A stretch of 64,000 bases of DNA from Dehalococcoidia bacterium (GCA_050011565.1 JBEKIW010000001.1:544001-608000), one strand, 5' to 3'. Positions 15,237 through 30,753 are shown, numbered from the stretch's first letter. Translations and numbers: made by a program. The notes: generated by a model not told the origin, from the letters alone.

Positions 15237-15776
15237 TTATTGTCCTTTTACTTGGACCGGCAGGCAGGCGACCATGAGGTAGACCTCGGTGGCGTGACCG
15301 GAGAGAAGCTGGTTGGCTTTGCCCAACAGGTCGCGGTAGATACGTCCCAGCTTGTTTTCCGGCACCAGGCCCATGCCGACTTCGTTGGAGACAATGACGA
15401 AGCTGGCATCCAGCCTATCCATGGCGTCGATAAGCTTGTTTATTTCAGCCTTAACTCTTTTTTCCGCTTCCGGATAATCCGGTTCACCATGGAGCAGGTT
15501 GGAGATTAGCAACGTAATGCAGTCAATGACTATTACCTCGGCATCGCCGATTTGTTTCTCTATTTCCTTCCCGATGCCGGTCGGTATCTCCAGAGTTCGC
15601 CAGTTTTTGGGACGGTCTTTTTTGTGCTCGGCAATCCTGGCCTGCATCTCTTCATCCAGCCCCTCGCCGGTGGCCACAAAGAGGACCTTGCTGCCTAGTT
15701 CTCCCGCCAGCTGCTGGGCATAATGGCTCTTACCGCTTCGAGCGCCGCCGAGTAAGAGGATGATTTGTTTAGCCAA
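15237..15776 (-). CDS. cobU: Bifunctional adenosylcobinamide kinase / adenosylcobinamide-phosphate guanylyltransferase
   Basis: GGARSGKS P-loop, EMQARIAEH, DCITL, VSNEVGMGLVP, YRDLLG.ANQ. Confidence 0.97.
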   Translation of the reverse strand: MAKQIILLLGGARSGKSHYAQQLAGELGSKVLFVATGEGLDEEMQARIAEHKKDRPKNWRTLEIPTGIGKEIEKQIGDAEVIVIDCITLLISNLLHGEPDYPEAEKRVKAEINKLIDAMDRLDASFVIVSNEVGMGLVPENKLGRIYRDLLGKANQLLSGHATEVYLMVACLPVQVKGQ

Positions 15777-16428
15777 GACTGTACTCCGTGATGTCTAAAG
15801 TCCAGTGGTCGTCCCTGGAAATAACGACTGTCCTGCCGATTTTTACGGGCTTTTTAAAGGACGGCCCGTCATAAACAAATGTGTGAAATTCTCCGGCTTC
15901 GCCGCAGACATCAACCCCAAGCTGGCCGAGTTCGGAAGCCAGTTTTTTATCCACCTGCCTGCCCAGCCATTCTTTGCCCAAGAACTTAGCTTTGACGCTG
16001 ACGATAATGGCTTTGAAGCCAGCCTCTATGAAGTCGGTTAAGAGCGTGGGGCTGTCTATTTCCCACAATGGTAACAATGCTTTGATACCTACTTCGCCAC
16101 AGACCCTGTCTATCCAATCCTTGTGTTCCTGCAAGTAGATATCGCCGGTGACCAGACCTGTTATGCCCTCCAGTTTGAGCTTTTCCAGCGCGTCTTTGAA
16201 TCCGGCTTCATAGGTCTCCCAGGTGACTTTTTGTTGCAGTATGGGCAGTCCCATAGCCTGCGCCTGTAAAGCCAACAGCTTGCTGTCGAGGCCGTGGGAC
16301 ATAGCCTTTGTGGAATCGGCATGGATGAAGTTGAGCAAATGGCTGACCTTCAATCCCTGAGAGATTGCTTTCCAGTAGGCGAGGCAGCTGTCTTTGCCGC
16401 CGCTCCATGAAGCTGCATATTCTGTCAT
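15769..16428 (-). CDS. Diphthine--ammonia ligase-like PP-loop ATPase (DUF71/COG2102)
   Basis: SWSGGKDS PP-loop, SHG, GDI, PLW, DVCGEAGEFHTFVYDGP motifs. Confidence 0.9.
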   Translation of the reverse strand: MTEYAASWSGGKDSCLAYWKAISQGLKVSHLLNFIHADSTKAMSHGLDSKLLALQAQAMGLPILQQKVTWETYEAGFKDALEKLKLEGITGLVTGDIYLQEHKDWIDRVCGEVGIKALLPLWEIDSPTLLTDFIEAGFKAIIVSVKAKFLGKEWLGRQVDKKLASELGQLGVDVCGEAGEFHTFVYDGPSFKKPVKIGRTVVISRDDHWTLDITEYSLG

Positions 16429-17159
16429 TGTAACCTCCCAATCAATATTATAAGCAGTAGTACCAGCACCTCAGAAAGCTCATTGATGGCGCCGTAGTTG
16501 TCTCCGGTCAGCCCGCCCAGACGGGAGCGGAAGTAGCCGGCGATGCCGAAGGCAATGAGCCATAGTACGGCCATAAGAACCAATCCCCACCATTTCAGCA
16601 AAACCACAGCTACAATTAAGGCTATGATTGTGGCTATGGTCAGCCTCTGCCAGGTGGCGCCAAGTTTGAAAGGCAGCCCCATGCCGGACCTTCGGGCATA
16701 GGGGAAGGTGAAAATGACGGAGACCATCGTCCAGCGGCTTAAGCTGGGCATAAGCAGCAAGGCCGGTAATATCGTCGACACTGAGAATAGAGATGCATAT
16801 TTGAGCAAAAGTAAGACAACGACGCCGACGATGCCGAAGGCGCCGACCTTAGTGTCCGACATAATATCCAGCCGTTCTTTTTTCGATTTACTGGCAAAAA
16901 CGCCGTCGCAAGTGTCGATGAAGCCGTCGAGGTGATGGGCTCCGGTCAGGATAACCAGGGCTATTATGAGCAGCGCTGTTACCACTGCAGGTGGCAGTAT
17001 CAAAGATAGGCCGTAATAAAGGCCGAGCAAGATAGCTCCAAGAATCAGGCCGACCAGCGGGAAATAAGGCAGTGATTGGCCTGAGGTCTCTGTGGTGACC
17101 TCATGGCGGAGGGGGGTAGGAAATATGGTTAAGAATTGAAGTGCTGCCCAGAAACCCAA
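16425..17159 (-). CDS. cobS: Adenosylcobinamide-GDP ribazoletransferase (cobalamin synthase)
   Basis: FLTIFP, TGAHHLDGFIDTCDG, IMSDTKVGAFG, GGLTGDNYGA. Confidence 0.96.
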   Translation of the reverse strand: MGFWAALQFLTIFPTPLRHEVTTETSGQSLPYFPLVGLILGAILLGLYYGLSLILPPAVVTALLIIALVILTGAHHLDGFIDTCDGVFASKSKKERLDIMSDTKVGAFGIVGVVVLLLLKYASLFSVSTILPALLLMPSLSRWTMVSVIFTFPYARRSGMGLPFKLGATWQRLTIATIIALIVAVVLLKWWGLVLMAVLWLIAFGIAGYFRSRLGGLTGDNYGAINELSEVLVLLLIILIGRLQ

Positions 17160-17161
17160 AT

Positions 17162-18244
17162 TTAAGCTCCTCCATGTGGTTCCATTGGTTTGGCTTCAGC
17201 AACGCCGGCCTGAGAGAAGGTGGCCATCTGGCTTAGCGTTCTGGCAGCGGCATCGGCCAGAAAGATACCGATAACAGCGCCGGTACCTTCACCCAGCCGC
17301 ATATTCAAATTTAGCAGCGGTCTCAGTCCCAGGAACTGGAGTAACAGCTCATGTCCTGCCTCCGCGGAGAGATGGGCGGCGATGAGGTAGTCTTTGGCCT
17401 GAGGCGACAGGCCGACCGCGATGAGAGCGGCCGCCCCGGAGATGAAGCCATCAATGACTACCGGTATTCTGTAGGCGGCACCGGCTAGCATGACTCCAAC
17501 CAGCCCGCCGATTTCAAAGCCACCAACTTTGGCCAGAACATCCAGCGGGTCTTTAGGGTTCGGTTTATTAATCGATAAGGCTCTCTCTATAACCTTGATT
17601 TTATGGGCAAGCTGCCTGTCGCCAACTCCGGTACCGCGGCCGGTGATTTTCTTGGGCTGTTTGCCGCTGATAGCGGCGAAGACGGCGCTGCTGGCGGTGG
17701 TATTGCCGATACCCATGTCTCCCGTGCCAATAATATCGACTCTTTTTGCCATCTCAGCCTCGACCGCCTGGATGCCGGCCTCTATGGTATCTATAGCTTG
17801 CTGGCGGGTCATTGCCGGTCCTTGTGTCATATTCTGGGTGCCGAAGTCAATCATTTTGCACAGTAATCCGGGCAATGGCTGGAAGCCACCTTTTACGCCC
17901 ATGTCTACAACTATAACCCGGGCGCCTATTTGACCGGCCAGGACGTTTATGGCGGCGCCGCCTTTGAGGAAGTTGATGACCATCTGCCGGGTAACTTCCT
18001 GTGGGTAGAGGCTGACCGTTTCAGCGGCGACGCCATGGTCGGCAGCCATGACAATTATGGATTTATGTTCCAGTTTAGGTGAGGCTGTACCTTTAATTCC
18101 GGCGAGCTGAATTGACAGCTCTTCCAACCTGCCTAGACTGCCGTGCGGCTTGGTCAGGCTGTTCTGGCGGCTTTGGGCAGCGGCCATGGCGGAGCTGTCC
18201 AACGGTTTTATCTCTTTTAATATCGTGTCCAGGGAAGTTGCCAT
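17162..18244 (-). CDS. cobT: Nicotinate-nucleotide--dimethylbenzimidazole phosphoribosyltransferase
   Basis: LTKPHGSLGRLE, AADHGV, GDMGIGNTT, GGFEIG, DGFIS, MRLGEGTGA. Confidence 0.97.
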   Translation of the reverse strand: MATSLDTILKEIKPLDSSAMAAAQSRQNSLTKPHGSLGRLEELSIQLAGIKGTASPKLEHKSIIVMAADHGVAAETVSLYPQEVTRQMVINFLKGGAAINVLAGQIGARVIVVDMGVKGGFQPLPGLLCKMIDFGTQNMTQGPAMTRQQAIDTIEAGIQAVEAEMAKRVDIIGTGDMGIGNTTASSAVFAAISGKQPKKITGRGTGVGDRQLAHKIKVIERALSINKPNPKDPLDVLAKVGGFEIGGLVGVMLAGAAYRIPVVIDGFISGAAALIAVGLSPQAKDYLIAAHLSAEAGHELLLQFLGLRPLLNLNMRLGEGTGAVIGIFLADAAARTLSQMATFSQAGVAEAKPMEPHGGA

Positions 18245-18263: not shown

Positions 18264-18788
18264 TTAGTACTCTATGCCGCGGCGGGCGCTTGTCCCCCCA
18301 GTAAATGGATGCTTAATCATGAGCATCTCGGTGACTAAATCAGCTCGCTGGGCAATCTCGGGAGGCGCGTTCCTGCCCGTCAGCACCAGTTCAACCGAAA
18401 CCGGCTTCGAGTCCAGCAATTCCAAAACCTGTTTAATGGTTATCAAGCCCTGGCTTATGGCGACGAAGATTTCATCGAGAACGACCAGGTCGTACTTTCC
18501 ACTGAGTATTTCCTGCTCGGCGTAAGCCAGTGTCTGAAGAGCTTCCTGGCTTAACTGTTCCTTGGATTTCTTAAAACTGTCGCCGATACTTATCTGGACT
18601 ATTTCAAAAGGGTTATGCTGCCTGACAAAAAAATGCTCGCCGCAAGGTTCGCCTTTTATGAACTGGATGAAGGCTACCTTCATGTCTTGTCCGACGGCTC
18701 GTATTGCCAGGCCTAAAGCCGCTGTGCTCTTACCTTTGCCATCGCCCGTGTAAACGTGGACCAGACCTTTGCCGTTCTTTTCAACCAT
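18264..18788 (-). CDS. cobO: Cob(I)yrinic acid a,c-diamide adenosyltransferase (CobO/BtuR/CobA)
   Basis: VYTGDGKGKSTAALG, QFIKG, VLDEI, LTGR, ADLVTEM..IKHPF. Confidence 0.96.
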   Translation of the reverse strand: MVEKNGKGLVHVYTGDGKGKSTAALGLAIRAVGQDMKVAFIQFIKGEPCGEHFFVRQHNPFEIVQISIGDSFKKSKEQLSQEALQTLAYAEQEILSGKYDLVVLDEIFVAISQGLITIKQVLELLDSKPVSVELVLTGRNAPPEIAQRADLVTEMLMIKHPFTGGTSARRGIEY

Positions 18789-20298
18789 GCTTCCTCCCGA
18801 GAGTAATTTCGTAGACCAGTGACATATCGAGGTTGTGTCTGATTATATCCGCTAGTTTATCATACATATCCTGCTTGTTTATCGAAGAAGCCGTAGTTGA
18901 CGGTAATCCGCGAAGCTGTCGCAGCCGGTTCAGCAGCCGGCGAGTGAACTCGGTATTGTGAAATAAGCCATGAATGTAAGTGCCGAATATGAGTCCGTTA
19001 GGGCTAACAGCACCGTCGAAATAATCTAATTTCCCTTGAGGCGTTTCCAGGACATGGAGTGCCGGCCGGCAATTACGGTTTCTGGTTTGACCCATATGAA
19101 TCTCGTAGCCGGTGATATCCATATCCTTCAGGCCTTTAAATAAGCCGTCGTCGGCAGCAATGCGGGCTTTAACCTGGGTGGTTGTTTTGTTGCTGTTAAA
19201 CACAGTGGTGATTTCTAGCAGGCCAAGACCGTCGATTCTATTATGTTTAGATTCGATTTTCTCAGGGTCGAGTATGCTGCTTCCCAGCATCTGATAGCCG
19301 CCGCAAATACCTATTATTGGAACGCCTGACTGCACTAGCTGGATAATAACCGGCACCAGGCCTTGTTGTTTCAAGTGTACTAAATCGGCGACGGTGCTCT
19401 TGGTGCCGGGCAGGATGAGCAGGTCTGGATTGCCTAACTCTGGGGGGCTGGACACATAACGGACGGTACAGCCCTGCTCTTCCAGTGGGTCGAAATCATC
19501 GTAGTTGGAGATATGGGGCAGCCGAATCACAGCTACGTCTAGAGTTCCGTTGGCTGACGTTGTTTGTCTTTCATCCAGATAAACCGAGTCCTCCTGGGCA
19601 ATAGTAATGCCCCGGAAGTAAGGAATGACTCCCAGGACAGGCTTGCCGGTTCGCTTCTCCAGTATGTCCAGGCCCGGCTTCAATAGCTTCAGGTCGCCTC
19701 GAAATTTGTTGATGACAAGCCCTTTGATACGAGCGCGCTCCAGTTTGGTCAGCAGTTCCAGTGTGCCGATTATAGAAGCGAAGACGCCGCCGCGGTCGAT
19801 GTCTCCGACAAGCAGGACGGGAGCTTTAGCCATTCTGGCAATTCTCATATTAACTATTTCCCTTTTTTTGAGGTTTATCTCTGCCGGGCTGCCCGCGCCT
19901 TCGATGACCACAATATCATAGGCAGCAAGCAAATGATTTAAAGAGTCCTCAATAATCTTTAGTAGTCTGGGAGTGTAGCTGTAATACTGGCTGGCCGTTA
20001 GATTTTTGGCTACCTTGCCTAAAACGATTACCTGGGACCTGGCATCGGCTTCGGGTTTGAGCAGGATAGGGTTCATATGTACTGAAGGCTCGATGCCGGC
20101 TGCTTCGGCCTGTACTGCCTGGGCCCGTCCGATTTCACCGCCTTCAGTGGTAACGAAGGAGTTTAATGCCATATTCTGTGCTTTAAACGGGGCGACTTTG
20201 AAGCCGTCCTGCCGGAAAATACGGCATAGTCCGGCCACGATTATGCTTTTACCTACGGATGAAGCTGTGCCCTGTATCATCAGGGTTTTAGCTGGCAT
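18781..20298 (-). CDS. cobQ: Cobyric acid synthase (CobQ/CbiP)
   Basis: QGTASSVGKS, PFKAQNMALNS, EGAGSPAEINL, DIDRGG, GICGGYQMLG, GYEIHMG, GTYIHG. Confidence 0.97.
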   Translation of the reverse strand: MPAKTLMIQGTASSVGKSIIVAGLCRIFRQDGFKVAPFKAQNMALNSFVTTEGGEIGRAQAVQAEAAGIEPSVHMNPILLKPEADARSQVIVLGKVAKNLTASQYYSYTPRLLKIIEDSLNHLLAAYDIVVIEGAGSPAEINLKKREIVNMRIARMAKAPVLLVGDIDRGGVFASIIGTLELLTKLERARIKGLVINKFRGDLKLLKPGLDILEKRTGKPVLGVIPYFRGITIAQEDSVYLDERQTTSANGTLDVAVIRLPHISNYDDFDPLEEQGCTVRYVSSPPELGNPDLLILPGTKSTVADLVHLKQQGLVPVIIQLVQSGVPIIGICGGYQMLGSSILDPEKIESKHNRIDGLGLLEITTVFNSNKTTTQVKARIAADDGLFKGLKDMDITGYEIHMGQTRNRNCRPALHVLETPQGKLDYFDGAVSPNGLIFGTYIHGLFHNTEFTRRLLNRLRQLRGLPSTTASSINKQDMYDKLADIIRHNLDMSLVYEITLGRKHG

Positions 20299-21385
20299 GG
20301 TTCAGTGCTCCCATATCTTTGATAGCTTCGATTAGCTTCTGACACTCCGACAAGGAGCGCGGAGCCAGACGTATGTATTCGGGCAAGCCGAACGACGTGC
20401 AATCACGCACCAGTAGACCTTTCTTTAATAAAGCTTGTCTGAAGGTTGCGGCATTGCCCACCCGGACAAGGAAGAAATTGGTTTGTGAAGGCAGCGGCGA
20501 TAGCCCAAGGCATTCCAGCTCTTTTATCAGGAAATTTTTGGCCTTTCGAATTTTGTTATAGCACCCCTTGAGATAACTGTCAGCATTCAGGGCAACGATG
20601 CCAGCTTTCTGGGCCACGCTATTGACATTCCAGGGCGGGCGGACACGTCTTAGTTGGGAGATAATTGATTCCTCAGCTATGGCGTAGCCCAGGCGCAGTC
20701 CTGCCAGCGCATAGTCCTTGGTCATCGACCGCAGGATTACTAAGTTGCCATGGTCTATTAAGTCCACGGATGCCCAGGCGTTTTCGGTGAAAGCGATGTA
20801 GGCTTCGTCAAGCACGATGAGGCTTTCCGGAGCACTTGACATAATCTGTGCAACTTCGCCTCTGGACATATATTGTCCCGTCGGGTTATTAGGATTGCAC
20901 AGAAAAACGGCTTTGGGTTTATGTTTTCGGAGCAATTTTGTGATTTCACATACATCGAGATGGAAATCCGGCTCTTTAAGAACGGGCTGTTTCATTATTT
21001 TAGCATCGGCGAGTTGACAAGCGGTTTGGTATTCGCTGTAGGTCGGCTGTGGGATAATGACTAAATCATTGGGTTCAAGGTAGGCGGCAGCAGTAAGCCT
21101 GATTAGCTCCGTGGAACCGTTGCCTACAATGAGCTTGCCCGGGGATATGTTTAGTTTTTCAGCTAGTGCCTGTCTTAGTTCGCTGGCTTCAGAGTCGGGA
21201 TAGTGTTCGACTGATGCGTTGACTAAGACTTCCTTTATGCCTGGCGGTGGCCCGAACGGATTAATGCTGACGCTGAAGTCGAGGACAACCTCCGGCAAAA
21301 TACCAAGTCTCTTCAACTCCTCGTAGTCAATGCCACCATGAATGCTGGGGGCAAGCCTATTTATAGCTGGTCTATGCTGCAACAA
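20288..21385 (-). CDS. cobD: Threonine-phosphate decarboxylase (PLP, HisC-like)
   Basis: HGG, DFSVSINP, CNPNNPTG, LDEAY, RSMTKDYALAGLRLGY, RDCTSF; located between cbiB and cobQ. Confidence 0.85.
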   Translation of the reverse strand: MLQHRPAINRLAPSIHGGIDYEELKRLGILPEVVLDFSVSINPFGPPPGIKEVLVNASVEHYPDSEASELRQALAEKLNISPGKLIVGNGSTELIRLTAAAYLEPNDLVIIPQPTYSEYQTACQLADAKIMKQPVLKEPDFHLDVCEITKLLRKHKPKAVFLCNPNNPTGQYMSRGEVAQIMSSAPESLIVLDEAYIAFTENAWASVDLIDHGNLVILRSMTKDYALAGLRLGYAIAEESIISQLRRVRPPWNVNSVAQKAGIVALNADSYLKGCYNKIRKAKNFLIKELECLGLSPLPSQTNFFLVRVGNAATFRQALLKKGLLVRDCTSFGLPEYIRLAPRSLSECQKLIEAIKDMGALNHAS

Positions 21386-22319
21386 AATATATTACCTCGG
21401 CTAACATCAATATTGAGCACCACATGATGGCAGTCACTACAATAATTTGCCGGGAGGCATCAATAGTATTCAGTGACAATGGAAGATGGTTGTCACCCAA
21501 CTTGTAATGACCGGCCTTTTCCAATTGTACGTCGAGCGCGCCGGCGACGGCACTCATTGTCCAGCCGGCGTTGGGGCTCTCTGTTTTATTGTGGTCGCGA
21601 ATCATAATATGCCAGGCCTGTGAGATATTCTTTCGACATATCAATGCCGCCAGAACTATCAGCAGTGCAGTAACCCGTGCCGGGATAAAATTGGCGACAT
21701 CGTCTAATCGGGCAGCGAATTTACCCACATATTCCCATCGTCCACGGTAGCCTATCATAGTATCATAGGTATTTATTACCCGGTAAGCTATGGCACCAGG
21801 CACGCCGAAGATAGAGAAGTAAAACAGAGGAGCTACAAAGCTGTCGCATATATTCTCGGCTGCCGACTCTACTGCAGCTGAAATCACCTGGCTCTGGCTG
21901 AGCTCAGTGGTGTCGCGGCTGACCAGAGACCTCAAACTCAGGCGCGCCTGTCCCAGGTTATCTTTAGACAGGAGTCTTTTAACCGAATCAACAGCTTGCC
22001 TGAGTCCTCGTAAGGAAAAACTGAATTTCAGCAGAAGACCCGAGATAATGACATAGACTATAAGGTTAAACTCACTGAGTTGAGCAAATAAAAAATAAAC
22101 AGCGGTCACAATTAGTCCGAGCGTAACTAAAACGATACCGGCGCCATAAGCCATCTGCCTGAATTTTCCCCTTTGTGGAGCCAGCTTCGTTTCCAATGAA
22201 ATTAGCTTCCCTAACCAGGCTACCGGATGCCAGGTGTTTGGTGGCTCACTTAAAATGAGGTCGAGCGTGAGGGCTATGAGCAGAATAACTATTTTTCCCA
22301 TCGTTTCTGCAATAATCAT
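21372..22319 (-). CDS. cbiB: Adenosylcobinamide-phosphate synthase
   Basis: EPP..HPVAWLG, LVSRDT, ESAAEN..DSFVAPLFY, YRVINTYDTMIGY, SPNAGW. Confidence 0.96.
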   Translation of the reverse strand: MIIAETMGKIVILLIALTLDLILSEPPNTWHPVAWLGKLISLETKLAPQRGKFRQMAYGAGIVLVTLGLIVTAVYFLFAQLSEFNLIVYVIISGLLLKFSFSLRGLRQAVDSVKRLLSKDNLGQARLSLRSLVSRDTTELSQSQVISAAVESAAENICDSFVAPLFYFSIFGVPGAIAYRVINTYDTMIGYRGRWEYVGKFAARLDDVANFIPARVTALLIVLAALICRKNISQAWHIMIRDHNKTESPNAGWTMSAVAGALDVQLEKAGHYKLGDNHLPLSLNTIDASRQIIVVTAIMWCSILMLAEVIYFVAA

Positions 22320-23104
22320 TTGTCTTTATCAGAGACGATAAGGGTAGCCGGCAATTTGTTAACCGGATGAGGATAGACATAGACTTCCGCCCCGTAAACG
22401 TCCTTGATAGTCTTAGCATTTATCACTGCCTGAGGAATGCCCTGGCAGTAGACCGTTCCGTTGCTGAGCACTACCAGCCGGTCGCAATATTGAGATGCCA
22501 GGTTTAAATCATGAAGCGTCACCACCACAATTAGTTTCTGTTTTCGGCACAATTGGCGCGCCAAATCTAAAGTTTCTATCTGGTAATTAATGTCCAGATT
22601 GGCGGTAGGTTCATCCATAAGCATTATTTTCGGCTCCTGGGCCAGGGCACGGGCGATAGTCAGGCGCTGTCTTTCACCTCCGGACAGCTCGCCAACTCTG
22701 CGTTCAGCAAAAGCAAGCGTCTGGGTAGCTTCCATGACAGCTTTTACGATAGCCAGGTCCTTTTTCCCTTCGTACCTTAGTAGGCCCAGATGAGGGGTAC
22801 GCCCCATAAGCACCACCTCGAGGGCGGTGAACGGTTCAGGTAAGGTCGGGTTTTGAGGCACGACAGCTACCAGTTGGGCTAGTTTCTGCCTGTTTATGCC
22901 AGATATGTCACTGCCGTCAAGGAAGATTTTTCCGCTGCCTGGCTGGATAAGTCGGGTTATGCCCCTTATCAAAGTCGATTTGCCGGAACCGTTGGGACCG
23001 ATGATGCCCAGCATCTCTCCAGGTCTGGCTTCGAAGCTGATGTTACGGAGCACAGTTTGTTTGCCGTAACCCAGGCTGACGTTATCAAGTCGTAAGTTGA
23101 ACAT
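22316..23104 (-). CDS. btuD: Corrinoid ABC transporter ATP-binding protein (BtuD-like)
   Basis: GPNGSGKST, MGRTPH, LSGGERQR, DEPTANLD, HDLNLA; context in B12 operon. Confidence 0.88.
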   Translation of the reverse strand: MFNLRLDNVSLGYGKQTVLRNISFEARPGEMLGIIGPNGSGKSTLIRGITRLIQPGSGKIFLDGSDISGINRQKLAQLVAVVPQNPTLPEPFTALEVVLMGRTPHLGLLRYEGKKDLAIVKAVMEATQTLAFAERRVGELSGGERQRLTIARALAQEPKIMLMDEPTANLDINYQIETLDLARQLCRKQKLIVVVTLHDLNLASQYCDRLVVLSNGTVYCQGIPQAVINAKTIKDVYGAEVYVYPHPVNKLPATLIVSDKDK

Positions 23105-24184
23105 TTAAAATATGGCTCTCTTCTTTTGTCGCAATAGATAAAGAAAGAAAGGGGCTCCCAGAAAGGCAGTGATAACACCAATGGGCACCTCGGTAGGCGC
23201 CAGCATGGTTCGGGCGGCAGTGTCGGCCAGAATCAAGAAAATGGCTCCGGCAAATGTAGCCAGTGGCAACAGGAAGCGGTGGTCAGGGCCCCATATAAGC
23301 CGCATGGCGTGGGGGATAATGATGCCGACAAAGCCGATAATACCGCAGAAGCAGACCGCAGCCGCGGTTATCAATGTTGCAGCTCCGAGCAAAATTAGCT
23401 TGACTTGTTCCACATTGATGCCCAGCTGCTGTGCCTGTTCTTCATCGAGTTGCATTACGTTCAGAGGCCGGGCATAGAGCCATATGATTACTGTACCAAC
23501 GAGAATGTAGGGCGTTACCATTGCCACCTGCCACCAGCTGGTTAGCGCAAATGAACCCAGGAGCCAGGAGATGATGCCGTGTAATCTGTCGCCTGAGGCA
23601 ATCATCAGGTATGAGGTAATCGCCGCCAGAAAAGCACCGATAGCTACACCAGCCAGGATTAACGTAGTCATGGGTAGAGTTTTTCCGACTTTGGCTATGG
23701 AGTAGACCATAACTGCTGCTGAAACGGCACCAACGAATGCCAGTAGGGGGATGCTGCCGATTTGCCATGATACCGGCAACATAAAACCGATGACAGCTCC
23801 TAAAGCTGCGCCTTGAGCCACTCCGATGAGATACGGGTCAGCCAGAGGGTTACGGAAAAGTCCCTGATATGTGGTTCCGGCCACAGCCAATGCAGCACCT
23901 ACCAGACCGGCCAGCAATAACCGTGGCAGGCGAATATCAAAAATGATAATTTCTGTGTTGCTTGTCCAGGTTGGTTCGATATGGATAAGAGGCAATTTAG
24001 ATAACAGGATATGAAATAACGTACCAAAGGGAATATCAGTGCTGCCTATACCCAAAGTAACCACAATCGTTATTCCCAAAAGCAGGGCCATCCCAACGAT
24101 GGCGTAAATTCGACTGCGCCACTGTATGGGGTAAACAGTAGTGGTCTCTGGTATGGCTGCGTCCTTTAGCGATTCCAGCGCCAT
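23105..24184 (-). CDS. btuC: Corrinoid ABC transporter permease (FecCD/BtuC family)
   Basis: IRLPR, QGLFRNPLADPY, EEQAQQLGINV, IGFVGIIIPH, EVPIGVITAFLGAPFF. Confidence 0.9.
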   Translation of the reverse strand: MALESLKDAAIPETTTVYPIQWRSRIYAIVGMALLLGITIVVTLGIGSTDIPFGTLFHILLSKLPLIHIEPTWTSNTEIIIFDIRLPRLLLAGLVGAALAVAGTTYQGLFRNPLADPYLIGVAQGAALGAVIGFMLPVSWQIGSIPLLAFVGAVSAAVMVYSIAKVGKTLPMTTLILAGVAIGAFLAAITSYLMIASGDRLHGIISWLLGSFALTSWWQVAMVTPYILVGTVIIWLYARPLNVMQLDEEQAQQLGINVEQVKLILLGAATLITAAAVCFCGIIGFVGIIIPHAMRLIWGPDHRFLLPLATFAGAIFLILADTAARTMLAPTEVPIGVITAFLGAPFFLYLLRQKKRAIF

Positions 24185-24185
24185 T

Positions 24186-24926
24186 CTAGACTATCCTTGT
24201 CACCGTATACCTGAGTTCCTCGTTTCCCGTAAGACACGAGACATTATTTAAATGCTTCTTAGCCATAATCACCGCGGTTTTCATTTCATTACTTGTCGGC
24301 CGCCGCCATGGATTATCACCTGCTGGAAAATAGGCATCAATCCGATAAGGGATATCCCTATCAACGTGACCAATGAACCTGGCGATTTTTTCAATTTCGT
24401 TGTGCTCAATGTATTCAGGGATAAAGATACTTTCAGCTCTAAGCTTGGCTCCGGATTTGTATAGAGAAATAAAATTAGCTAGAGCTTCTTTATTGGATTT
24501 ACCGGTGTACTCGCGGTGTAGATTGTCAGTGTAAGCCTTAATGCTGAAGACAATCTCATCAAAGTATTGTGCAGTCAATACTTTGAAGCCATTGGTTAGC
24601 AGTATATTGCGGGTAGCATATTCCTCGTGCAGGTTTTTGGCTAGCTCGGGCAGCTCCGGGTCGGTAGCTGGCTCCTGCCCCATAAAAAAAGCTTGTTGCA
24701 CCTTCAGTTTGCGTACAGTGTCTTGAACCTGGTCAATGCTGAGGAATGTTTTCGGCTCCAGTTTGGCCATCTTGTTTGGCTGAAAGATGGCCTCTTTTGT
24801 TTCTTCGAGATGGCAGTCGTAGATTTCCTTGCGGCACAGGCAGGCACGGCAGCTTAGGTTACAGCCCCAGAAGTGAAGGTAAACTGCCTTTGGCTCCGGC
24901 GAATAAGTGATATGATAGATATTCAT
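24186..24926 (-). CDS. Radical SAM protein (activating-enzyme-like, single domain)
   Basis: CxxxCxxC in GCNLSCRAC, GQEPA (GGEP-like), LLTNG, SIKAYT..LHREYTGKSN. Confidence 0.85.
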   Translation of the reverse strand: MNIYHITYSPEPKAVYLHFWGCNLSCRACLCRKEIYDCHLEETKEAIFQPNKMAKLEPKTFLSIDQVQDTVRKLKVQQAFFMGQEPATDPELPELAKNLHEEYATRNILLTNGFKVLTAQYFDEIVFSIKAYTDNLHREYTGKSNKEALANFISLYKSGAKLRAESIFIPEYIEHNEIEKIARFIGHVDRDIPYRIDAYFPAGDNPWRRPTSNEMKTAVIMAKKHLNNVSCLTGNEELRYTVTRIV

Positions 24927-25846
24927 TTGAATTTTTCGAATAGTTCCGGATGAATAAATTGTGCCATCTCTTCCAGTGCTTCTACCACGCGAGGACCGGG
25001 TCGATCTATCAGGTCACCATCTATTTTGTACACTCTGCTATTCAGCAGTGCCTGAGTATTTTTCAGCCTGGACTCAGATTTTATGTATTGCCAGGGCAAG
25101 TCCTCACCGGTGCCCATGCCAACAGAGACGATAATTACCTCTGGGTCTCTGTTAATGACTGTCTCGAGGTCGATTGTTTTGTCGCCGGTGATATCGGAGG
25201 CAATGTTTTGCCCGCCCGCCTGGCTGATTACATCGTTGCTTAGAGTCCCTGTGCCAGCGGTCCACAGCGGGTCATGCCAGGTGACGTAAAAAACCCTCGG
25301 TCTTTGGGCAGAAGACAATTTTTGTGTTTTGTCAGCTATTTCTTTAATACGTGCGCTCAGGTCTTTAACCAGTTCAGAAGCCACTTTGTCCTGCCCCGTA
25401 ATTTCCCCTACCAATTTGATGCTGTCCAGCACATCATTGAGGGAGCCCGGGGTTAAAGCGACAACTGTTATTCCAAGGTTTTCCAAGGCTGGGATAATGG
25501 TCTTATCGTGTATCCGGGTTGCCAGCACTAAGTCTGGCCTGAGTGAAACGACCTTTTCTATGTCCACAGTACTGAAACCACCAACTTTAGGTTTAGTCTT
25601 GGCTGCTTCAGGATAGTTACAGTACTCAGTGTCGCCTACTACTTTATCTCCCAACCCGAGAGCGAACAGGATTTCGGTATTGCTTGGTGCCAGAGATACG
25701 ATCCTTTGGGGTACTGTGTTGATCGTTACTTTTCTACCCAGACCGTCAACTATGTTGCCTGGGGGAGATTGTGGAATACAGCTGAGTAGAACAAGCGCGG
25801 TTAATGCTATGGCGATGTAAAAGCTATGGCGGATATATTTACTCAT
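24923..25846 (-). CDS. btuF: Cobalamin-binding lipoprotein of ABC transporter
   Basis: Lipobox LLSC, RIVSLAPSNTEILFALG, EKVVSLRPDLVL, RPGPR. ATG at 25846 has an AAGGAG RBS (track used TTG at 25861). Confidence 0.92.
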   Translation of the reverse strand: MSKYIRHSFYIAIALTALVLLSCIPQSPPGNIVDGLGRKVTINTVPQRIVSLAPSNTEILFALGLGDKVVGDTEYCNYPEAAKTKPKVGGFSTVDIEKVVSLRPDLVLATRIHDKTIIPALENLGITVVALTPGSLNDVLDSIKLVGEITGQDKVASELVKDLSARIKEIADKTQKLSSAQRPRVFYVTWHDPLWTAGTGTLSNDVISQAGGQNIASDITGDKTIDLETVINRDPEVIIVSVGMGTGEDLPWQYIKSESRLKNTQALLNSRVYKIDGDLIDRPGPRVVEALEEMAQFIHPELFEKFK

Positions 25847-25871
25847 TATCGTCTCCTTCAAATAGACAGTA

Positions 25872-25905
25872 AAATAAAATCCCCTTGCTTTGGAGCAAGG
25901 GGATT
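25872..25905 (-). terminator. Intrinsic terminator in the btuF leader (riboswitch expression platform)
   Basis: Minus strand: AATCCCCTTGCT-ccaa-AGCAAGGGGATT followed by TTATTTT. Confidence 0.85.
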
Positions 25906-25921
25906 AATTAAAAATAATAAA

Positions 25922-26066
25922 TCCCACCCCCTTACTCCGCGGAGGCAGCTATACTAGTAAGGCCGATGTTCTGACTTTCACAGCAGGCGGGACTGTGCCG
26001 GAATTTCACCGGTTTGCATACCAATTAAGCCCTGGGTCACCCTTGGGCACCCTACTAAAGCTATTC
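25922..26066 (-). ncRNA. Cobalamin riboswitch (compact form)
   Basis: Minus strand: GGGTGCC..GGCTTAAT..CCGGTGAAATTCCGGCACAGTCCCGCCTGCTGTGA-AAGTCAGAA..GGCC. The downstream hairpin loop GCGG can pair with the CCGC loop. Directly upstream of btuF. Confidence 0.9.
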
Positions 26067-26077
26067 AGTTAATAAAT

Positions 26078-26501: not shown

Positions 26502-27389
26502 ATGACTGCAAAAATCATCAGTGGCACCGAAGTAGCTGCTGAAATTCGCCAGGAATTAAAAGGCAGAGTAAAAAAAATTGTAGATAAGGGGATTACTCCG
26601 GCACTGGCTGTGGTGCTGGTGGGAGAAGACCCGGCATCGGTATCTTATGTTACCGCCAAAGCGAAAGGCGCTGAGGAAATAGGCATGCATGAGGAGACCA
26701 TCCGGCTGCCGGCCGATACCCCGGAGAAAAAAGTTCTCGATACCGTAGAAAAGCTGAACAAAGACGAGAAATTCCATGGCATACTTGTTCAGTTGCCGCT
26801 ACCCAAACATATAGATACTGAAAAGGTAATTAGCTTCATCTCAGCCGAAAAAGACGTGGATGGCTTTCATCCAATCAACGTCGGTAAGGCGCTCAGGGGT
26901 GAGCCCTGCCCTCTGCCTTGTACCCCGCATGGAGTGCAAGAACTATTGATTAGAAGCGGCAACAGCCCTGAGGGCAAACATGTCGTCATTTGTGGGCGGA
27001 GCAATCTTGTGGGTAAACCTCTGGCGGCTATTTTGATGCAGAAGAAGAAAGGCGCTAATGCTACAGTCACTGTTTGCCATACAGGGACCAAAGATATTGG
27101 TTATTTTTCCAGGCAGGCTGATATAGTGGTGGCAGCTATGGGGGCGCCTAAGGCGATAACTGCTGACATGATCAGAGAAGGTGCAGTGGTTATCGATGTC
27201 GGCGTTAACCGCGTGGAAGATAAGACAAAAGAGAAAGGCTTCCGCCTGGTCGGTGATGTCGACTTTGATGCCATGAAGGAGAAGGCATCGGCCATAACTC
27301 CGGTCCCCGGCGGCGTCGGGCCTATGACAGTGACTATGCTGCTGCTGAACACTGTGGAAGCAGCTGAAAGAAAAGCGGGTATCAGCTAA
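26502..27389 (+). CDS. folD: Bifunctional methylene-THF dehydrogenase / methenyl-THF cyclohydrolase
   Basis: GILVQLPLP, EKDVDGFHP, PCTPHG, GRSNLVGKP, IDVGVNR, ITPVPGGVGPMT. Confidence 0.98.
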   Translation: MTAKIISGTEVAAEIRQELKGRVKKIVDKGITPALAVVLVGEDPASVSYVTAKAKGAEEIGMHEETIRLPADTPEKKVLDTVEKLNKDEKFHGILVQLPLPKHIDTEKVISFISAEKDVDGFHPINVGKALRGEPCPLPCTPHGVQELLIRSGNSPEGKHVVICGRSNLVGKPLAAILMQKKKGANATVTVCHTGTKDIGYFSRQADIVVAAMGAPKAITADMIREGAVVIDVGVNRVEDKTKEKGFRLVGDVDFDAMKEKASAITPVPGGVGPMTVTMLLLNTVEAAERKAGIS

Positions 27390-27472
27390 CAAAGTGAAAT
27401 CTCGGGAAATATTTATTTTCTCGATTTTCAGAGTAAAGTAACAATAAATAGAAAGGAAAAGGAGGTTGTTAT

Positions 27473-29233
27473 ATGCCCTATGATGCAGTAAAAATGAAAG
27501 ACTGGCAAATTTCAGATGCCGCCGAGAAGAACATGCCGACACCCGAAGAGTGGCGTGAAAAGCTGGGACTGCAGAAGGATGAGATTATCCCATTTGGCAG
27601 GTTATGCAGGCTTGATTTCATGAAAATCATTGAGCGGCTCAAGAAAAAGGCTGACGGCAAATACATTGAGGTAACCGCTATAACGCCGACACCACTAGGC
27701 GAAGGTAAAAGCACGACTTCAATGGGGCTTTTAGAGGGCCTGGGTAAACGGGGTAAGAATGTGGGCGGCTGTCTACGCCAGCCATCCGGCGGCCCCACTA
27801 TGAATATCAAGGGGACAGCTGCCGGTGGTGGCAATGCGCTTCTAATTCCCATGACCGAGTTTTCCATGGGGCTTACCGGCGACATCAATGACATCATGAA
27901 TTCCCATAACCTGGCTATGGTGGCGCTCACTGCCAGGATGCAGCATGAACGGAACTACGATGACGCCGAGCTGGCTAAACGCAACCTGCGGCGATTGGCT
28001 GTCGATCCAACCCGCGTAGAGATGGGCTGGATCATGGACTTCTGCGCTCAGAGCCTCAGGAACATTGTTATAGGTCTGGGCGGCCGCATGGACGGTTTTC
28101 TTATGCAGTCTAAGTTCGGTATTGCTGTGAGTTCCGAGCTTATGGCTATGTTGTCCATAGTCAAAGACCTGGCTGACCTGCGCCAGAGAATGGACAAAAT
28201 CACTGTTGCTTTCGATATGAAGGGTAAGCCGGTGACTACAGGTGACCTGGAGGTAGGTGGCGCCATGACTGCCTGGATGCGCAATACCATCAATCCCACG
28301 CTGATGTGTACCGCTGAATACCAGCCGTGCATGGTGCATGCCGGCCCCTTTGCCAATATAGCAGTAGGACAGTCATCCATTATTGCCGACCGCATCGGTC
28401 TGAAGATGTTTGACTACCACGTTACCGAGAGTGGTTTTGCCGCTGACATTGGCTTTGAGAAGTTTTGGAACGTCAAGTGCCGCTTAAGCGGGTTGATACC
28501 CCACGTATCAGTGCTCACCACTACTATCAGAGCTTTGAAGATGCACGGTGGAGGACCTAAGGTGGTAGCCGGACTGCCCTTACCCGATGCTTATACAAAA
28601 GAAGACCTTAAAACACTGGAAAAAGGTCTACCCAATATGATACATCACATTAACACCATCAGAACAGCCGGCATTAACCCGGTGGTCTGTATAAATGCCT
28701 TCCACACCGATACCAAGGATGAAATCGCCATGGTGCGCAAGGCAGCCGAGGCAGCCGGTGCCCGCTGTGCTGTTTCCACTCATTGGGCAAATGGCGGTGA
28801 TGGCGCCCTGGAGCTAGCTGATACGGTCATGGATGCCTGCAACCAGAAGAACGAGTTCAAATTCTTATACCCTCTGGAAATGAAGCTCCGCGAGCGGGTA
28901 GACAAAATTGCCAAGGTGGTCTATGGGGCTGACGGTGTATCATGGACGCCCGACGCTGAAGCCAAGGCCAAGATGCTTGAGAGCGACCCGCAATACGGCG
29001 ACTTTATGACCATGATGGTAAAGACACACTTGAGCCTGACGCACGACCCTGCTATAAAGGGCACTCCCAAAGGCTGGACATTACCTATACGCGACGTCTT
29101 AATCTATTCCGGCGCAAAGTTCCTTTGTCCCTGCGCCGGGACCATCAGCCTGATGCCGGGCACCAGTTCCGACCCTGCCTACAGAAGGGTGGATGTTGAT
29201 GTAAAGACCGGCAAGGTGATGGGTCTGTTTTAA
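27473..29233 (+). CDS. fhs: Formate--tetrahydrofolate ligase
   Basis: [51 protein letters not shown]. Confidence 0.98.
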
Positions 29234-29255
29234 AGAAAAACAAAGGGAATTCTTT

Positions 29256-29290
29256 AAGGCTGGGTGGCGCATTGCGCCACCCAGCCTTTT
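29256..29290 (+). terminator. Intrinsic terminator after fhs
   Basis: Perfect inverted repeat AAGGCTGGGTGGCGC-att-GCGCCACCCAGCCTT followed by TT. Confidence 0.85.
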
Positions 29291-29316
29291 CAGTTACAAT
29301 CAAATTCGGGGTTAAA

Positions 29317-30753
29317 TTGAACGACGAAGAATTGCTTCGGGAATTCGAGCCCATATTTTACCCTAAGTCTATTGCTGTAGTCGGCATTTCCCAAAATATA
29401 TTTAAGGTGGGCTCACTCTGGCTGAAAGCCGTTATGGATGCCGGCTTTAGAGGTGCTATTTATCCGATTCACCCTCGAGGCGGTGAGTTTCTAGGATTGA
29501 AAGTCTATACCAGTATTAAGGAAGTTCCGGAGATTGTGGACTATGTTATCGTCTCCATTCCCAGAGAAGCCGTACCTGAACTGCTGGATGATTGTGCTCA
29601 TAAAGTAAAAACTATTCATTTCTTCACTGCCGGCTTCGGTGAGGCAGGCGATGCCACGGGGAGACAGTTGGAGGAGGAATTGATAAGCAAAGCGCGACAC
29701 GGCGGCTTCCGTATTATCGGGCCTAATTGTATTGGCGTTTATTCTCCGGAAGTTCGAGTACCCTATGGGCCCAGCGGCAGGATAGGCGAAGTCGGCTCGG
29801 TAGGCTTCATTTCCCAGAGTGGGGGAATAGGGGAAAAGTTATTCGAGCTGGGACTTGCCAGGGGTATCAGATATAGCAAGGGCATCAGCTTCGGCAACGG
29901 TATTGACCTGGATAGCCCCGATTATATGGAGTATATGTCCGCAGACCCGAGAGTCTCCGTTATCGGCGCCTATCTCGAAGGAACGAAAAACGGTCACCGG
30001 CTATTTATCAAGATGAAGGACGCAGCCAGGTTGAAGCCACTAATTGTGTGGAAAGCCGGCAGGACTGGCATTGGTGCCGCAGCCGCCGCTTCACATACCG
30101 GCTCCCTGGCAAGTTCCGCGGCCATTTGGTCGGCAGCCCTGAGGCAATCCGGTGCTATCGAAGTCCAGGATGTCGAAGAGTTGACCGATACTTTGCTCAT
30201 TTTTCAACAGCTTGGGCAATTGGAAGTCAAAGGAAATGGCATTGCTGTCGTTGGCGGGCTTGCCGATGGTGGCGGCGGTATTTCTGTTTCAGCCAGCGAT
30301 GCCTGTGCCGAACTTGGACTTAATATTCCCCCGCTCTCCTCCGAGACGAGACGAAAGTTGACCAACCTTCTAGGCAGGGTAGGCAGTATCTTGCGCAATC
30401 CCGTAGACGTAAGTCAAAGTGGCAGCAATCGTTCCATGATAAAAGAGGCTGCGGGGCTGGTCCTTGCCGATTCCTCAATTGACCTTGTAATAGTGCAAAT
30501 AGATGCGGGTATACTGTTAAAATACTTGCCCTGGGAGCTGGTCGAATCCATATTTACTGTTTTTATCGAGCTGAGAAATGAGCAGGAAAAGCCGATAGTT
30601 ATCGTCTCTCCTCCCGGCGCTTTCGAGTCGCAACGCATCGAAATGGAGCAGCAACTAGCTCGAGCTTCAATACCCGTCTTTCCTACTATGAAACGGGCGG
30701 CTAAAGCTATCATAAACTTGAGTCGATACTCTCAATTCCGGAATATGGACTAG
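29317..30753 (+). CDS. CoA-binding protein, ADP-forming acyl-CoA synthetase alpha-subunit family
   Basis: PKSIAVVG, FTAGFGE, IIGPNCIG, SQSGG, SFGNGID, phospho-His motif SHTGSLA. The track start at 29272 lies inside the terminator, so TTG at 29317 is preferred. Confidence 0.85.
   Translation: MNDEELLREFEPIFYPKSIAVVGISQNIFKVGSLWLKAVMDAGFRGAIYPIHPRGGEFLGLKVYTSIKEVPEIVDYVIVSIPREAVPELLDDCAHKVKTIHFFTAGFGEAGDATGRQLEEELISKARHGGFRIIGPNCIGVYSPEVRVPYGPSGRIGEVGSVGFISQSGGIGEKLFELGLARGIRYSKGISFGNGIDLDSPDYMEYMSADPRVSVIGAYLEGTKNGHRLFIKMKDAARLKPLIVWKAGRTGIGAAAAASHTGSLASSAAIWSAALRQSGAIEVQDVEELTDTLLIFQQLGQLEVKGNGIAVVGGLADGGGGISVSASDACAELGLNIPPLSSETRRKLTNLLGRVGSILRNPVDVSQSGSNRSMIKEAAGLVLADSSIDLVIVQIDAGILLKYLPWELVESIFTVFIELRNEQEKPIVIVSPPGAFESQRIEMEQQLARASIPVFPTMKRAAKAIINLSRYSQFRNMD

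Follow-up and report, generated by a model that had tools for sequence, protein, structure and literature searches.

We report that genes for a small radical SAM protein recur at one insertion point, between btuF and btuC of the corrinoid importer, in bacteria and archaea at 35-83% identity, and that a protein family dedicated to corrinoid handling is the best explanation of this arrangement. The member under study, P0001, is encoded in a window of 64,000 nt (the whole stretch of DNA analysed here), within a 12-gene salvage operon that reads, on the minus strand, BtuF, radical SAM protein, BtuC, BtuD, CbiB, CobD-type protein, CobQ, CobO, CobT, CobS, PF01902 protein, CobU. Textbook corrinoid salvage (BtuFCD, an adenosyltransferase, CbiZ/CbiB and CobU/T/S/C) includes, to our knowledge, no radical step, and we class the operon as B12 salvage of the standard kind plus an additional radical enzyme whose presence is unexplained. 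Its features, in order of transcription, are:

25944..26069, minus strand: cobalamin riboswitch aptamer RF00174 (36.7 bits, gathering score 31.5; E 1.1e-05; match over the full model, 1-189)
25878..25905, minus strand: terminator-like hairpin with U-rich tail, TTATTTTACT (12 pairs, 6 of them G-C, loop of 4; consensus scan only)
24923..25861, minus strand: btuF, predicted corrinoid-binding lipoprotein of the ABC importer (Peripla_BP_2, 136.8 bits)
24186..24926, minus strand: P0001, 246-aa single-cluster radical SAM protein, ATG start (Radical_SAM, 45.4 bits)
23105..24184, minus strand: btuC, FecCD-type permease (FecCD, 324.5 bits)
22316..23104, minus strand: btuD, ABC ATPase (ABC_tran, 122.2 bits)
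21372..22319, minus strand: cbiB, adenosylcobinamide-phosphate synthase (CobD_Cbib, 298.8 bits)
20288..21385, minus strand: cobD-type aminotransferase-fold protein (Aminotran_1_2, 222.6 bits)
18781..20298, minus strand: cobQ/cbiP, cobyric acid synthase (GATase_3, 192 bits, and CbiA, 82.3 bits)
18264..18788, minus strand: cobO, ATP:corrinoid adenosyltransferase (CobA_CobO_BtuR, 198.8 bits)
17162..18244, minus strand: cobT, lower-base phosphoribosyltransferase (DBI_PRT, 458.2 bits)
16425..17159, minus strand: cobS, cobalamin-5'-phosphate synthase (CobS, 186.6 bits)
15769..16428, minus strand: PF01902 PP-loop ATP pyrophosphatase, Dph6-like (Diphthami_syn_2, 197.5 bits)
15237..15776, minus strand: cobU, cobinamide kinase/guanylyltransferase (CobU, 193.4 bits)

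The strand of the radical SAM gene was absent from the original prediction. Besides this gene, the PF01902 PP-loop gene is a second non-canonical member of the operon; its product scores 156.9 bits with the Dph6_archaeal model, below the cut-off of 197.3. BtuF scores 115 bits with model PRK03379, below the cut-off of 234, and its N-terminus has a hydrophobic segment and the residues LLSC, which we read as a lipobox-like lipoprotein signal. The gene at 20288..21385 is presumably cobD, for a threonine-phosphate decarboxylase, a name given from its operon position and context.

The cobalamin riboswitch is the sole Rfam element across the whole window. The hairpin (25905-25878) sits between the aptamer and the btuF start, as expected of an attenuator governing the genes behind it, and is probably the expression platform of the riboswitch. 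With aptamer and hairpin both 5' of btuF, the radical SAM gene is the second gene behind the riboswitch, as had been claimed. The gene junctions also agree with the original prediction of a 246-aa CxxxCxxC protein that overlaps the btuF stop at ATGA and ends one nucleotide before btuC. ATGA is the reverse complement of 24923-24926, where the radical SAM ATG (24926-24924) overlaps the btuF stop TGA (24925-24923), and a single spacer base, 24185, separates the radical SAM stop TAG (24188-24186) from the btuC ATG (24184-24182). The start codon is backed by an N-terminus, MN[IV]YHITY, that is conserved among homologues. To judge from these junctions, the gene is probably transcribed together with btuF and btuC under the B12 riboswitch, with translational coupling.

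The linkage to corrinoid import extends across the relatives of P0001. At E<=0.001, 5.8 billion proteins yielded 407 homologues, of which the 120 best are nearly all 245-247 aa long, and a set of 1.84 billion proteins yielded 260 representatives (50% clustering). Genome neighbourhoods were surveyed at 80, 10 and 40 loci as a sample of these roughly 400 homologues. The importer layout was present in 7 of 10 loci from species genomes. Pfam annotation of the neighbours placed BtuF directly upstream in five of these loci (L001, L003, L004, L008 and L009, the last a Methanocellales MAG with 49% identity), and L005 has the order BtuF-CbiZ-rSAM-BtuC. The layout of L006, which has frame-shifted genes, was assigned from coordinates and the riboswitch only. 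In L002 the homologue lies between Usp and DUF4340 genes; L007 starts at a contig end, and the L010 match spans 45 residues only.

In metagenomes we scanned the best 80 of 111 relatives and dropped the window's own sequence (L063), leaving 79 loci whose neighbours were annotated by tblastn with reference proteins from Pfam-annotated genes. In this sample, biased to the close clade because the search patterns were that clade's N-terminus (12 closer sequences), 75 loci have 300 nt or more of upstream sequence, and in 67 of them btuF lies upstream on the same strand; 57 have 300 nt or more of downstream sequence, and in 50 of them btuC lies downstream. Across all 79, BtuF directly precedes the gene in 58. 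The loci that miss this layout are all given here: L140 repeats the Usp/TruA surroundings of L002; L135 has DsbD and AhpC genes upstream, as does L054, where btuFCD comes after the radical SAM gene; an IS110 transposase gene follows the gene in L127; short unknown ORFs lie upstream in L097, L129 and L137; and in L086 and L119 the upstream gene, at the end of the contig, is a TP_methylase. In the archaeal phylum of L009 the gene occurred in 11 of 301 sampled genomes, with btuF upstream in 9/11 and btuC downstream in 5/11 within 1.5-kb flanks, and with unrelated neighbours in L167 and L169. A cobalamin riboswitch precedes the operon in seven bacterial cases (the window, L001, L003, L006, L008, L041 and L042); in L004, Rfam gave none over threshold.

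These counts bear out the expected linkage with btu/cob genes and B12 riboswitches, and are the opposite of a family whose members lie mostly by glycyl-radical enzymes or show no B12 enrichment. No glycyl radical enzyme was seen beside homologues whose neighbours were scanned with Pfam, or beside the others in tblastn searches with B12 reference genes only. The proposal of a step in the processing of imported corrinoids is supported by this linkage, which favours no particular chemistry.

P0001 belongs by Pfam to Radical_SAM (PF04055; 45.4 bits against a cut-off of 29.5), and this generic model is the only one to exceed its cut-off, with specific families far below theirs. The CxxxCxxC motif is formed by C22, C26 and C29 in FWGCNLSCRAC. 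In an alignment of 39 members these three cysteines are invariant along with N112, K130, P170 and L226, while G83, E85, T111, G113 and A131 are nearly invariant (G83 and E85 at least 90% conserved). As judged from this alignment, the SAM-binding features are intact (CxxxCxxC, G83/E85, T111-N112-G113, K130-A131); the TNG and K motifs are ones we take to be SAM contacts in PFL activase. The extra Cys/His residues noticed earlier after the cluster motif (CLCRKEIYDCHL) fared unevenly: C31 and C38 vary, leaving C22, C26 and C29 as the only invariant cysteines among the 39 members, and H39 (with L40) is at least 90% conserved, but only within the importer-embedded bacterial clade. The loop that carries them is absent from the archaeal form L009. 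Since the extra cysteines are not conserved across the 39 members, an auxiliary cluster is not indicated, and we rule it out.

An AlphaFold (AF2) model built from 39 relatives is confident (pLDDT 95.9, pTM 0.92). Its nearest solved folds are those of PFL activase (PDB 3c8f, 3cb8 and 8fo0; TM 0.68-0.75, 12-14% identity, Foldseek E 2e-14 to 1e-12), whose partial barrel it resembles and relative to which P0001 has a loop of about 35 extra residues after the cluster motif; NifB, viperin, MoaA and QueE come next. There were 169 PDB structure matches at E<=0.001, radical SAM enzymes throughout among the matches listed, consistent with a partial TIM barrel. A PDB sequence search gave one match, at E 0.46, and the ESM Atlas gave generic radical SAM clusters only. 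The best NCBIfam matches are glycyl-radical activases, covering residues 112-215 only and with scores far below cut-off (YjjW/TIGR04041, 40.2 against 250.2; TIGR02494, 25.9 against 174.35; TIGR02493, 15.9 against 231.75); NrdG (TIGR02495, TIGR02491; 15.0 against 131.15) and QueE (TIGR03963; 15.0 against 260.1) also fall short. Pfam found no B12-binding domain (PF02310) in P0001, and the sole NCBIfam match to a class B radical SAM enzyme is TIGR04190, at E 0.087. Neither Pfam (E<=0.01) nor NCBIfam (E<=0.1) gave a match to a ThiC-type family (BzaA/B/F). The earlier statement that the protein resembles neither ThiC-like BzaA/B/F nor BzaD/E therefore stands. A search among proteins of 432-2000 aa, weak evidence on this point, found no fused or longer forms.

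From these features P0001 is, as far as its sequence can tell, a minimal radical SAM enzyme with a single [4Fe-4S] cluster; nothing in it hints at a further cluster or at a domain for B12 binding. It is predicted to be cytoplasmic because no signal-peptide-like N-terminus is visible. We define a family by length (about 246 aa), by the N-terminal pattern MN[IV]YHITY...FWGCN, by TNG, SIKA, RIDAY and PWR motifs, and by placement between btuF and btuC. On this definition the importer-embedded, corrinoid-linked radical SAM proteins are classed as a distinct, unnamed family, and P0001 has all of its marks.

Some neighbours recur beside the radical SAM gene. A TP_methylase gene lies directly before it, or between btuF and it, in 12 of the 79 metagenome loci and in archaeal L164. 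The gene adjoins CbiZ in L005, L090 and L106. Genes for PF01902 proteins share its operon in the window and in L009, L106, L125, L136, L141, L046, L051 and L057, lying just before it in L125 and L136. The PF01902 protein is far commoner than the radical SAM protein, occurring in 113 of 401 genomes of the class sample (a tally that includes the unpublished G244), and is present in 14 of the 17 radical SAM carriers there. A trio like that of diphthamide synthesis (radical enzyme, Dph5-fold methylase and Dph6-like ligase) was considered and ruled out, the neighbouring methylases being CbiE-like (TIGR02467, 69-100 bits) and not diphthine synthase-like (Dph5).

In family f49, represented by two genera whose genomes are small, mostly complete and well supplied with reductive dehalogenase genes, and which we take to be organohalide-respiring Dehalococcoidia, the gene is present in multiple copies: up to six scored places per genome (six being the scoring maximum), with arrays of four to six copies in L046 and L050. 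Annotation of 150 neighbours with Pfam and NCBIfam showed all seven paralogue contexts to be B12-related. Paralogues lie directly upstream (0-9 nt) of NrdJ genes (TIGR02504, 566-660 bits) in L043, L050, L051, L057, L058 and L060; immediately before one to three genes for B12-binding radical SAM enzymes, close to rdhA, in L045, L047, L049, L052 and L053; with CbiZ/CbiB/CobO and a CN-hydrolase in L048, L056 and L059; interspersed with genes for CbiE-like methylases and PF01902 PP-loop proteins in L046, L050, L051 and L057; and upstream of btuFCD-cbiZ-cbiB in L054. A quick maximum-likelihood tree of 48 chosen rows (SH-aLRT support only; the root resting on three distant members as outgroup) has the importer-embedded forms, both bacterial and archaeal, branching at the base of a clade with SH-aLRT 96. 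The f49 paralogues form context-specific clades (SH-aLRT 100), each with one type of B12 neighbour across two genera, and by this phylogeny they are therefore old, stable specialisations.

Of the 401 genomes in the class sample 17 carry the gene, and none of the 10 other genomes of the window's own family (f1) does. In a second f1 sample, orthologous btuC (60-82% identity) was present in 9 of 12 genomes, and no radical SAM gene occurred within 1.5 kb of btuC in any of these nine orthologous loci, five of which have btuF directly before btuC. Because nine f1 genomes keep the orthologous btuC without it, the gene is, on this comparison, accessory and dispensable for the operon. The window's genome (99.2% complete) has one copy of the gene, one btuFCD set, an NrdJ gene on another contig and two CobO genes, one of them in the operon. 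Queries of this genome found no CbiZ, reductive dehalogenase or CbiE-like gene, and its two PF00590 matches are 509-aa and 274-aa frames elsewhere. Its only glycyl radical enzyme (C1:468844-471285, about 97 kb away) has its own adjacent activase (TIGR02494, 320 bits against a cut-off of 174), and PF13597 (NRDD) was not found; for these reasons, a role as glycyl-radical activase is in practice excluded.

The reading best supported by the shared insertion point, the riboswitch and paralogue contexts that are B12-related throughout is that the substrate is a corrinoid imported by BtuFCD, and we consider this probable. Under riboswitch control in company with btuF and btuC, the enzyme would be made only when corrinoid is short, in step with the importer. 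It would take the corrinoid delivered into the cytoplasm by BtuCD and use a SAM-derived 5'-deoxyadenosyl radical on it before CobO, CobQ, CbiB and CobU/S/T complete the cofactor. The dispensability of the gene in f1 counts against a corrinoid role of this kind, as do the homologues outside B12 loci (L002 and L140, by Usp and TruA genes, and archaeal L167 and L169).

Our favoured reading, offered tentatively, places the chemistry at the upper axial position of cobalt. In one form, cob(II)amide would capture the 5'-deoxyadenosyl radical, giving a Co-C bond without ATP or Co(I); in the other, a foreign alkyl ligand would be removed by radical chemistry. Either form would hand a single kind of intermediate on to the enzymes that follow, several of which work on adenosylated substrates. 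Among the neighbours of family members, CbiZ, CbiB and CobQ act on such substrates, and NrdJ depends on adenosylcobalamin. In its place at import the enzyme would parallel CblC/MMACHC and BtuM, which process ligands there; paralogues encoded beside client enzymes have their counterparts in PduO, EutT and MMAB; and the minimal architecture, with no auxiliary cluster and no invariant extra Cys among the 39 members, is also consistent with axial chemistry. An extended version, in which the whole family is a radical route to or from the Co-C bond, with the importer form processing entering corrinoids and the paralogues of organohalide-respiring Dehalococcoidia each serving a particular client (NrdJ, the remodelling enzymes CbiZ/CbiB, or radical SAM enzymes that bind B12), is conceivable but unlikely. 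Against axial chemistry, a conventional CobO is encoded in the same operon, so radical adenosylation would be redundant here, and a second CobO copy lies elsewhere in the genome. In a first check five of five archaeal carriers lacked both PF02572 and PF01923, but the full archaeal sample shows no anti-correlation with these adenosyltransferases, since the absence of both in 7 of 11 carriers is shared by 155 of 290 non-carriers (B12 use and completeness being uncontrolled). Axial chemistry also leaves unexplained the links to CbiE-like methylases (12/79 loci) and to B12-binding radical SAM enzymes.

The methylases would fit better with a tailoring or repair of the corrin periphery, a rather doubtful reading in which the enzyme takes a hydrogen atom from a foreign or damaged corrinoid, at a carbon of the ring or of a side chain, and works, where they are present, with a CbiE-like C-methyltransferase and PP-loop/AsnB-like amidoligases towards a host-acceptable corrinoid. 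The CbiE-like TP_methylases of the 12 metagenome loci and L164, the PF01902 genes in the operons of the window and eight other loci, and the tandem arrays of three to six paralogues with CbiE-like genes (L046, L050, L051, L057), which look like a multi-step pathway, all point this way. The window and most loci have no methylase, however, with BtuF directly upstream in 58/79; a CbiE-like gene is absent from the window's genome, the alignment shows no conserved Cys or Tyr that would point to a hydrogen donor, and we are aware of no damaged or variant natural corrinoid for which C-H activation is required. A role in lower-ligand or nucleotide-loop supply or exchange, in which a benzimidazole-type base is made or altered or the loop is cleaved alongside CbiZ, seems highly improbable: cobT, cobS and cobU share the operon and CbiZ adjoins the gene in L005, L090, L106 and one f49 clade, but the protein is similar neither to ThiC-like BzaA/B/F nor to BzaD/E and lacks a B12-binding domain, and importer genes, not cobT, are the most constant neighbours.

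Two further explanations move the substrate away from the corrinoid. That the enzyme is a protein-directed activase or cofactor-loading factor, with BtuCD as partner and, for the paralogues, NrdJ, B12-binding radical SAM enzymes or reductive dehalogenases, is very unlikely, even though its closest solved fold and weak sequence matches are glycyl-radical activases, which act on proteins, its gene is embedded between transporter genes, and paralogues lie 0-9 nt upstream of NrdJ in six loci. Activase models all score far below their cut-offs, the NrdJ gene of the window's genome is unlinked on another contig, and we know of no need of class II RNR or BtuCD for a radical activase. Least probable is a passenger gene with a non-B12 role, such as a general SAM or Fe-S function, riding in the operon. 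Its accessory status (absent from 10/10 f1 genomes of the class sample and 9/9 orthologous f1 operons) and the few homologues in non-B12 contexts (L002, L140, L167, L169) would suit a passenger, but the insertion point shared by bacteria and archaea, the overlap or abutment with both transporter genes and the B12-related setting of all seven paralogue contexts speak against it.

A family held at one fixed point of importer operons in bacteria and archaea, together with client-tied clades, speaks for one or more reactions still missing from the picture of how anaerobes handle cobamides. In f49, obligate B12 scavengers relevant to bioremediation, the gene has multiplied into clades each tied to a different B12 enzyme. 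The question is directly testable, as the protein is small, confidently modelled and has cheap candidate substrates, and the answer would change genome-based prediction of cobamide sharing, remodelling and auxotrophy; if the cobalt-carbon chemistry were true, it would be a new way to make or break a Co-C bond. New in this study are the form found in bacteria under riboswitch control, the finding that it is accessory, and the expansion into paralogues. We found no published description of the small radical SAM family, including in excerpts of PMC2764846, PMC5574268, PMC12961961, PMC4635342, PMC12931638 and PMC9600662; Johnson et al. 2009 (corrinoid-responsive genes of strain 195) and Kube 2005 and Kruse 2016 (rdhF-I names) fall outside this scope and could bear on the paralogues.

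Among known systems, the presumed maturation genes rdhF-I of Dehalococcoides reductive dehalogenase clusters are close in setting, since f49 paralogues lie in such clusters. In the excerpts of the reports concerned, RdhF is called CbiZ-like and rdhI a "corrinoid-modifying protein", and the small radical SAM family is neither named nor characterised (PMC2764846, PMC5574268, PMC12961961). PFL activase and the other glycyl-radical activases share with P0001 a minimal core of about 245 aa and an N-terminal CxxxCxxC, and PFL activase is its best structural match; yet identity is only 12-14%, P0001 has the extra loop of about 35 residues, and no glycyl radical enzyme adjoins it in the loci examined.

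Functional analogies lie closer to B12 itself. CblC/MMACHC and BtuM process the upper ligand of cobalamin at uptake, an activity likewise tied to the transport step; the analogy is functional only, with no relation in sequence or fold, and these proteins use flavin/glutathione or a Cys ligand rather than a radical SAM cluster. The adenosyltransferases CobA/CobO, PduO and EutT exist as several context-specific copies beside client enzymes and are the first to act on salvaged corrinoids. They resemble the radical SAM paralogues in these client-adjacent copies and would make the same product under the favoured axial-ligand reading, but their folds are unrelated, they use ATP and Co(I), and CobO is already present in the operon of P0001. 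ChuW/HutW, HemN-like radical SAM enzymes of about 450 aa in anaerobic haem-uptake operons, open the ring to free iron. Here too a radical SAM enzyme is encoded with a PF01497/FecCD/ABC tetrapyrrole importer in anaerobes, but P0001 has no HemN-type match, and its operon rebuilds the cofactor rather than degrading it.

Besides the radical SAM gene, a second uncharacterised gene of the salvage operon lies between cobS and cobU:

Window 15769-16428, minus strand: PF01902 PP-loop ATP pyrophosphatase.

Its product resembles Dph6, with a score of 156.9 bits that falls short of the Dph6 cut-off of 197.3. Relatives occur within B12 loci of a Methanocellales MAG (L009), of metagenomes (L106, L125, L136 and L141) and of family f49, presumed organohalide-respiring Dehalococcoidia (L046, L051 and L057), and in 113 of the 401 genomes sampled from the class, a tally that counts the unpublished genome G244. 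We suggest that the protein may be viewed as a candidate corrinoid side-chain amidoligase. A 326-aa asparagine-synthase-like PP-loop protein is encoded in a species genome (L005:3914-4894) and two metagenome loci (L106:7688-8665 and L138:9703-10671), with btuD or cobD on one side of its gene and cobT on the other; its match to the AsnB model is confined to the C-terminal, synthetase part, and its role may be the same as that of the PF01902 protein. At three family f49 loci (L048, L056 and L059), cobO is followed by a CN-hydrolase gene whose product has the NAD synthase glutaminase domain as its top match, and which could act as the ammonia-supplying partner to a PP-loop ligase.

A CbiE-like tetrapyrrole methylase gene separates btuF from the radical SAM gene in metagenome loci L084, L085, L086, L103, L105, L107, L118, L119, L124, L131, L134 and L142 (as two tandem genes in L124), and in one archaeal locus:

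L164:828-1400: CbiE-like tetrapyrrole methylase, in the same interval.

The organisms carrying this insertion otherwise look like salvagers. On a MAG contig (L006:5066-7739; 76% identity), the frames of btuF and the radical SAM gene are split, owing to either assembly frame shifts or decay; riboswitch and layout are unchanged. The importer ATPase BtuD measures 418-428 aa in L009:7721-9007, L042:4520-5776 and the BtuD matches of L133 and L141, and its C-terminal extension of approximately 160 aa had no Pfam match.

Upstream of the operon, and divergent from its riboswitch, lie the following genes:

Window 26502-30753, plus strand: FolD, formate-tetrahydrofolate ligase and an ADP-forming CoA ligase-type gene.

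In another species genome (L003), MTHFR genes stand upstream of the B12 operon; one-carbon genes therefore adjoin it in both.

A second conserved radical SAM context, away from B12 genes, was observed at L002:4816-6744 and L140:360-2982, in the order TruA, a tandem-Usp gene on the opposite strand, and a radical SAM gene with 61% identity to that of the window. The window's genome has a single glycyl radical enzyme/activase pair, outside the window, and this activase matches TIGR02494 at 320 bits:

G000:C1:467786-471285: glycyl radical enzyme (813 aa) with its own activase (343 aa).

Family f49 genomes carry multiple radical SAM paralogues. Tandem arrays of three to six adjoin rdhA/rdhB in L046, L050, L051 and L057, together with CbiE-like, PP-loop, CbiZ-like, NrdJ, CobO and CbiB genes, a gene for a cysteine desulfurase of NifS type, and a small ORF that encodes 84-97 aa. 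One paralogue clade (L045, L047, L049, L052 and L053) is invariably found upstream of radical SAM genes of the B12-binding type, which number one to three per locus and lie near reductive dehalogenase genes. The products of these B12-binding radical SAM genes, roughly 490-505 aa long, find their top matches, all weak and below cut-off, in BchE (147-167 bits) and BzaD (94-102 bits).
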